From: Escherichia coli
GTDB lineage: Bacteria > Pseudomonadota > Gammaproteobacteria > Enterobacterales > Enterobacteriaceae
Reading direction: 5' to 3' (one strand)
Assembly (NCBI RefSeq): GCF_003334785.1
Contig: NZ_QOWV01000007.1
DNA: 64,000 bases
The notes under the pieces: generated by a model
Databases searched by the model: none
What the model was told of the DNA's origin: nothing
What the model saw: the letters and a program-made list of their open reading frames with translations, nothing else
Made by a program: the position numbers and the translations under genes
In this document: positions 18,350-18,485 of the stretch, piece after piece
How the letters are laid out: each line of letters opens with the position of its first letter
Position numbering within the stretch: position 1 is the stretch's first letter

Positions 18350-18485
18350 TTTGTCGGATGCGGCGTGAACGCCTTATCCGACCTACGATTCGGGGCCGTT
18401 TGTAGGCCCGATAAGACGCGCCAGCGTCGCATCGGGCATCCGTTGTCGCGTAAACGCTTTATCCGTCCAGGCGTACAGGGCCGTT
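18350..18485. repeat. Cluster of REP (palindromic unit) elements between convergent hemL and fhuB
   Basis: Several copies of the REP motif (ggatgcggcgtgaacgccttatccgacctac; gtaggcccgataagacgcgccagcgtcgcatcgggc) in alternating orientation. Confidence 0.85.

Follow-up and report, generated by a model that had tools for sequence, protein, structure and literature searches.

The convergent genes hemL and fhuB of Escherichia coli are separated, in the window analysed here (a 64-kb stretch of E. coli DNA), by a gap that holds three, and only three, units of REP origin, which alternate in orientation; two are intact and the third is real but decayed. On its sequence the cluster is a BIME-2-type REP cluster with one intact Y/Z2 pair. 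The REP units are probably barriers to 3' exonucleases for a hemL mRNA that is terminated by Rho, and not intrinsic terminators. Taken jointly, BIME-2 identity and a Rho-terminated hemL mRNA with REP end-protection are the best explanation of the data, and one that we consider likely. The original prediction, made from the letters of the DNA, had placed at least three alternating REP units at this junction; consensus matches, folds and alignment recovered three, one of them decayed.

The list of open reading frames places hemL at 17059..18339 on the plus strand, with its TGA stop codon at 18337-18339, and fhuB at 18497..20479 on the minus strand, with a TAA stop codon at 18497-18499 on that strand. 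The two genes leave an intergenic gap of 157 bp (18340-18496). The names hemL and fhuB for the two flanking reading frames agree with the annotation in every matching E. coli genome. The junction is the same as that of E. coli K-12 MG1655: over a stretch spanning the gap, 176 of 176 bases are identical to the reverse strand of MG1655. Window positions (w) were converted to K-12 coordinates (k) with k = 173602 + 18339 - w. The RefSeq copy of MG1655 has no repeat feature annotated at the hemL-fhuB gap.

A spacer of 13 nt (18340..18352) leads from the hemL stop codon to the foot of the first REP, the stem of which begins at 18353 in the folds. REP unit 1, of the Y type, lies on the minus strand at 18353..18386 and is followed by the 15-nt tail-to-tail linker GATTCGGGGCCGTTT (18387..18401), a short linker of the BIME-2 kind, which is found again in the 92-bp periods of the Escherichia whittamii array. 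REP unit 2, of the Z2 type, occupies 18402..18437 on the plus strand; both units were recognized by consensus match and hairpin. Alignment with the E. whittamii array defined the 7-nt head-to-head linker ATCCGTT at 18438..18444, the equivalent of which is ATTGTTT in that species. Unit 3, a decayed Y on the minus strand (18445..18471), was identified by repeat identity and by alignment with intact orthologous units. The array ends in a remnant of about 13 bases of a further tail-to-tail linker, GTACAGGGCCGTT (18472..18485), which was recognized as a direct repeat and by alignment. The last 11 nt before the fhuB stop codon (18486..18496) are the unique flank ATATGGAAAAA, which the alignment shows to be kept across the BIME alleles of Escherichia. 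The interval 18350-18485 given for the cluster in the prediction fits this layout when the terminal linker remnant is included. An 11-nt inverted repeat (18476-18486 and 18498-18508, 91% complementary, 11 nt apart) also joins the linker remnant to the fhuB stop-codon region; by a rough estimate chance alone would give about 0.2 pairs of this kind in the stretch, so the repeat is probably meaningless.

The assignment of units 1 and 2 to the Y and Z2 types uses consensus strings for the REP types. These strings are backed by another locus of the window, where blastn-short aligned 33 of 34 bases to the Y string and 29 of 29 to the Z1 string. Unit 1 differs from the Y consensus at two positions and unit 2 from the Z2 consensus also at two; neither consensus was matched when the window was shuffled 100 times with its dinucleotide composition preserved. 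Both units are predicted to fold into hairpins far more stable than those of shuffled sequences. For unit 1 the energies on the two strands are -19.2 and -18.8 kcal/mol (z -4.5 and -4.8), for unit 2 they are -23.4 and -22.9 kcal/mol (z -4.9 and -4.8), and in each case none of 200 shuffles was as good. The predicted stem of unit 1 has 7 pairs, an internal AA/GC mismatch and 4 further pairs; that of unit 2 has 7 pairs, the AA/GC mismatch and 5 pairs. The GTAG tag of unit 1 is on the minus strand (CTAC at 18383-18386 on the plus strand) and that of unit 2 is at 18402-18405 on the plus strand. Units 1 and 2 hence show the features by which REPs are recognized, namely an imperfect palindrome of 30-40 nt, GTAG 5' of the stem foot, a two-base mismatch in the stem and an extragenic, multicopy occurrence. 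With megablast, a query containing the cluster hit a median of 9 sites in each E. coli genome, which also backs the consensus strings.

Unit 3 is different. It shares 70% identity with unit 1 and its linker, and alignment with the intact Y units of E. whittamii and of strain SCPM-O-B-8794 reveals a deletion of 7 bases in its 5' arm. Its tag is mutated, reading GTAC in place of GTAG on the minus strand, and its fold is at the level of shuffled sequences (z 0.09 and -0.99), so that it has neither the REP hairpin nor the GTAG tag. A search of the complete E. coli genomes for an intact third REP found none, the closest match having 83.9% identity.

Catalogues of the REP and BIME elements of K-12 go back decades; the hemL-fhuB cluster is an ordinary member of this already catalogued kind, in line with what is expected of REPs from the literature. 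By definition, a BIME-2 joins y to an inverted z2 REP by a short linker, and a BIME-1 joins y to z1 by a long linker that often bears an IHF site (PMC3333891, Ton-Hoang et al.). The cluster is assigned to BIME-2 because its Y unit, 15-nt linker and Z2 unit on the opposite strand fit the first definition. With the BIME-2 elements of K-12 (sucC-sucB, tldD-yhdP, REP325) it shares both REP types in inverted orientation, the short tail-to-tail linker, the GTAG tag, the stem mismatch, the extragenic site and a copy number that varies among strains and species. It differs from their long tandem arrays in having a single intact Y/Z2 pair and a decayed third unit; the tandem copies typical of BIME-2 are present in the E. 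whittamii ortholog, which has 5 Y and 4 Z2 units. The Z2 unit of the cluster also reads GCCCGAT where the consensus has GCCTGAT.

The window contains only two REP loci, the hemL-fhuB cluster and the locus at 53145-53242 (approximately K-12 138.70-138.80 kb). The latter consists of a Y REP (33/34), a 35-nt linker at 53179-53213 bearing the IHF-like sequence AATCAATGGATTG, and a Z1 REP (29/29), and on these sequence features it is a BIME-1 or RIP-type element. Both loci are inverted REP pairs with one Y, sited between genes. However, the second locus combines Y and Z1 with a linker of about 35 nt and an IHF-like site, whereas the hemL-fhuB cluster combines Y and Z2 with a linker of 15 nt and has no such site. 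Rfam matches below threshold at the second locus were ES036 (CssrF) at 53179-53221 and naRNA4 at 53139-53175.

The Rfam model RF02564 (naRNA4) also matched the hemL-fhuB cluster on the minus strand, at 18405-18468 (46.6 bits) and at 18348-18383 (37.7 bits), and the third-best score was 32.2 bits. Membership of the cluster in this family was rejected because none of the three scores reaches the gathering score of 59.5 bits. The likeness in sequence and structure to naRNA4, a nucleoid-associated RNA derived from REP325, comes from the fact that both are made of Y/Z2 REP units. Elsewhere in the window three matches exceeded the Rfam gathering score, all on the minus strand: CssrA (1147-1256, 136 bits), t44 (2095-2181, 83.5 bits) and the thermometer of the HtrA 5' UTR (11052-11097, 77 bits).

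Next we consider how the hemL transcript ends. A terminator scan of 18200..18650 detected no terminator-like site on either strand, and none of the hairpins of the cluster is followed by a T-run or U-tract on either strand; the tails are CTACGATTCGGG, ATCCGTTGTCG, CTACAAACGG and AAACCATGCT. Because no REP hairpin has a U-tract, transcription of hemL would be expected to pass through the REPs. Published data locate a region of Rho termination downstream, on the hemL strand at K-12 173,016 (approximately window position 18925), about 590 nt past the hemL stop codon (PMC7815308, supplementary file 2, Adams et al.). In this region the reads upstream and downstream were 226 and 19 in untreated cells and 216 and 157 with bicyclomycin, counted in windows of 800 nt on either side, so that termination is not precisely placed; the Rho score is 8.6 and the p value 1.7e-22 (PMC7815308). 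The position falls in a stretch antisense to fhuB (18500..18950, plus strand) in which C exceeds G, with a GC skew of -0.03 to -0.29. Such an excess of C over G beyond the cluster is what Rho loading would lead one to expect. A weaker Rho region was reported on the fhuB strand at K-12 173,376 (approximately window position 18565), within the final 70 nt of fhuB; its score is 3.8 and its reads are 47/25 untreated versus 37/74 with bicyclomycin (PMC7815308). This region suggests that transcription of the fhu operon is also ended in a Rho-dependent manner around the cluster.

Transcripts terminated by Rho are cut back by PNPase and RNase II to a stable stem-loop without a U-tract, which is often a REP (PMC6061677, Dar and Sorek). 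Applied to this junction, Rho would end the hemL transcript a few hundred nucleotides beyond the cluster, in the C-rich antisense of fhuB, and 3'-to-5' exonucleases would then shorten it to the hairpins of REP2 and REP1, the barriers that would set the stable 3' end. The transcript of the fhu operon, coming from the opposite side, would run into the same REP hairpins. A putative RNA fragment of 76 nt, AC0173, has been listed at K-12 173,549-173,624 on the K-12 minus strand (PMC12306157, Table S1), which corresponds to 18317..18392 on the plus strand of the window. It covers the 3' end of hemL and REP1 and stops 6 nt beyond REP1. The role of mRNA 3' stabilizer that the original prediction had offered is therefore the best-supported one, given hairpins that lack a U-tract, C-rich sequence downstream, a Rho region, the trimming model and AC0173.

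The cluster resembles the protective 3' stem-loops known from Rho-terminated mRNAs (Dar and Sorek 2018; Peters et al. 2012) and the malE-malF REP stabilizer in that it offers a stable hairpin free of a U-tract just past a stop codon, with C-rich sequence and a Rho-dependent region downstream. It differs from them in that the curated Term-seq 3' ends of PMC7815308 have no nucleotide-level entry at the cluster, that is, within K-12 1734xx-1736xx, a point that speaks against the trimming model. AC0173 raises a second difficulty: it stops after REP1, yet trimming from downstream would reach REP2 first. The fragment was moreover called from RNA-seq only and is not among the four Northern probes or the Northern-confirmed species of the 2025 survey (PMC12306157), and the Rho windows are 800 nt wide. 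Finally, the cluster is absent from 3,704 of 5,426 complete E. coli genomes, which means that any host function it has must be dispensable or replaceable.

The position of REP1 may have a further consequence. The 13 nt between the hemL stop codon (TGA, 18337-18339) and the foot of the REP1 stem (18353) put hemL within the distance for REP-mediated translational down-regulation given in the part of PMC12306157 that cites Liang, Rudd and Deutscher 2015, where REPs less than 16 nt from a stop codon are described as lowering translation of the upstream gene via ribosome stalling. REP1 is thus near enough to the stop codon to qualify for this published effect. By analogy, it may cut HemL synthesis by stalling terminating ribosomes.

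To see how widely the cluster occurs within the species, its junctions and the full query were compared with 5,426 complete E. coli genomes. The full query of 361 bases was covered in 1,702 of them; the left junction of the cluster was found in 1,710 and the right junction in 1,709. In the 3,704 genomes that lack the cluster (68%), it is replaced by a hemL-fhuB gap of 34 bp, TGATTTTGCCTCGCCCACCGGGCGAGGCATTCAA (ending ...ATTTTA in O157), which shares nothing with the REP allele between the two stop codons. The short allele forms a perfect, GC hairpin of 10 pairs with an energy of -20.6 to -21.4 kcal/mol. Its form in O157:H7 (Z570), in which the 10-pair stem is followed by TTTTATT, scores as a terminator when the hemL strand is scanned; the form in STEC307, which has ATTCAATT, does not. 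The long allele exists in two diverged versions, one K-12-like and one ST648-like, the latter present at 99% identity or more in 224 genomes, strain ST648 included. Roughly 20 genomes were left unassigned: in about 8 both junctions are present but the full REP allele is not, and about 12 carry neither form of the gap. A search for a further E. coli allele resembling that of E. albertii was negative, and a non-exhaustive look at the cluster revealed no IS insertion, the other event that the original prediction had named.

The comparison with other species was based on one genome per species and did not take in E. fergusonii, E. marmotae and E. ruysiae. The convergent order of hemL and fhuB is kept across the Enterobacteriaceae. 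Homologous BIME-2 elements with the same flanks occur in four Escherichia genomes: E. albertii (gap of 118 bp) has 2 units, Y and Z2 only; Escherichia sp. E1V33 (157 bp) has the arrangement of the window; strain SCPM-O-B-8794 (162 bp) has an intact third unit; and E. whittamii (440 bp) has 9 units in a regular 92-bp period. Presence or absence of the cluster among strains and this variation in copy number bear out the suggestion that the junction is a hotspot for rearrangement.

In other genera the hemL-fhuB junction is occupied by unrelated REP pairs or by CCCTCTCCC/GGGAGAGGG palindromes, and the site seems to have been colonized repeatedly by palindromic repeats. Citrobacter and Salmonella arizonae have REP pairs of both arrangements, some of them followed by a T-run; Buttiauxella, Cedecea, Kosakonia and Leclercia have the CCCTCTCCC/GGGAGAGGG palindromes together with GGGTGAGGG repeats. 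The 34-bp hairpin of E. coli is similar to the gap of 36 bp found in three Citrobacter species, with an alignment score of 10 versus -4.5 +/- 3.0 for shuffled sequences and none of 2,000 shuffles as good, a null that ignores hairpin structure. Both alleles, the REP cluster and the 34-bp hairpin, are old, since the REP allele is shared across Escherichia and the short hairpin resembles the Citrobacter gap.

The same distribution could be read as evidence that the cluster has no function for the host and is the remnant, now in decay, of a REP doublet, selfish or commensal, that TnpA(REP) had spread and that is tolerated because a convergent 3' junction is safe. The erosion of unit 3, the lack of the cluster in 68% of complete E. 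coli genomes, the range of 2 to 9 copies across Escherichia and the unrelated palindromic repeats at the same junction in other Enterobacteriaceae all favor this reading, which we nevertheless regard as doubtful. Both intact units are just 2 positions away from their consensus, homologous alleles have been kept in E. albertii, E. whittamii and two lineages of E. coli, and some stable hairpin lies near the hemL stop codon in every lineage examined. The last observation indicates that a hairpin seems to be needed there even if its identity is not. An origin as a remnant is also compatible with a role as RNA barrier and does not exclude it.

Several features of the cluster relate to TnpA(REP) itself. 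The GTAG tag and the stem mismatch are required for binding and cleavage by this enzyme in vitro (PMC3333891), and units 1 and 2 keep both the tag and the AA/GC mismatch. On a reading of the published consensus (PMC3333891), the cleavage motif CC|TAC occurs in units 1 and 2. The type I site TGCC|TGAT appears to be altered to TGCCCGAT in the Z2 unit of the cluster, so that the C|T step would be lost there. With the tag and the mismatch, the intact units 1 and 2 may be substrates of TnpA(REP) at the DNA level, which would fit the changes in copy number between lineages (2, 3 and 9 units). The gene of the transposase is not within the window.

Another reading gives the cluster a role that is mainly at the DNA level, as a strong BIME-2 gyrase site that relieves positive supercoils between the converging units. 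Gyrase cleaves a subset of BIME-2 elements independently of transcription, and the cleavage sites are over-represented in this subset, mainly at y REPs (PMC6379681); the location of the cluster between convergent genes agrees with such a role. However, the cleaved elements are a subset only and the named examples (sucC-sucB, tldD-yhdP) are multi-copy arrays, whereas the hemL-fhuB cluster has one intact Y/Z2 pair. The supplementary text of PMC6379681 makes no mention of hemL or fhuB, and most E. coli strains do not have the cluster at all. We therefore think it unlikely that gyrase is the main reason for the presence of the cluster.

A much smaller probability attaches to the proposal that the cluster is an intrinsic (Rho-independent) terminator that works in both directions and ends the transcripts of hemL and of the fhu operon, although stable GC-rich hairpins are located exactly at the convergent 3' junction. 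In its favor, the alternative 34-bp allele in its O157 form looks like such a terminator, with a 10-pair stem and TTTTATT, and some Citrobacter REPs at the junction precede a T-run. The hairpins of the K-12 allele lack a T-run on both strands, however, and the scan of 18200..18650 was negative. Bicyclomycin raised downstream coverage about 8-fold, from 19 to 157 reads with about 220 upstream, which argues for Rho-dependent termination beyond the cluster. The missing T-run and the published Rho-dependent read-through (PMC7815308) lead us to reject this proposal, and on this point the earlier prediction, which had offered terminators as well as stabilizers, does not hold in the intrinsic sense. 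The correction is that the hemL-fhuB REPs are not intrinsic terminators; termination looks Rho-dependent and the REPs would act as protectors of the RNA end. The least probable reading of all, that the cluster encodes a trans-acting REP-derived sRNA similar to naRNA4 or to AC0173 from the hemL 3' UTR, can point to the naRNA4 matches of 46.6 and 37.7 bits and to the listing of AC0173 as a putative sRNA (PMC12306157), but those scores are under 59.5 and any Y/Z2 REP resembles the model, AC0173 is known from RNA-seq only and looks like a decay intermediate, and a scan of 18200..18650 found no promoter-like site.

With Rho-dependent termination and REP end-protection as the preferred reading for the window allele, the cluster itself has little discovery value, and the two-haplotype polymorphism is the sole mildly interesting by-product. 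The two alleles provide a ready natural allele swap with which the effects of REPs on a neighboring gene can be tested. There is a slim chance that these two old and unrelated haplotypes are different ways of ending hemL: BIME-2 with Rho-dependent termination in K-12-like and ST648-like E. coli, E. albertii and E. whittamii, and the 34-bp hairpin, terminator-like in its O157 form, in 68% of E. coli. If this were true, and if both haplotypes were held by selection or by recurrent recombination, the junction would be a natural switch between Rho-dependent and intrinsic termination, and this switch could measurably affect the expression of haem-precursor or siderophore-uptake genes.
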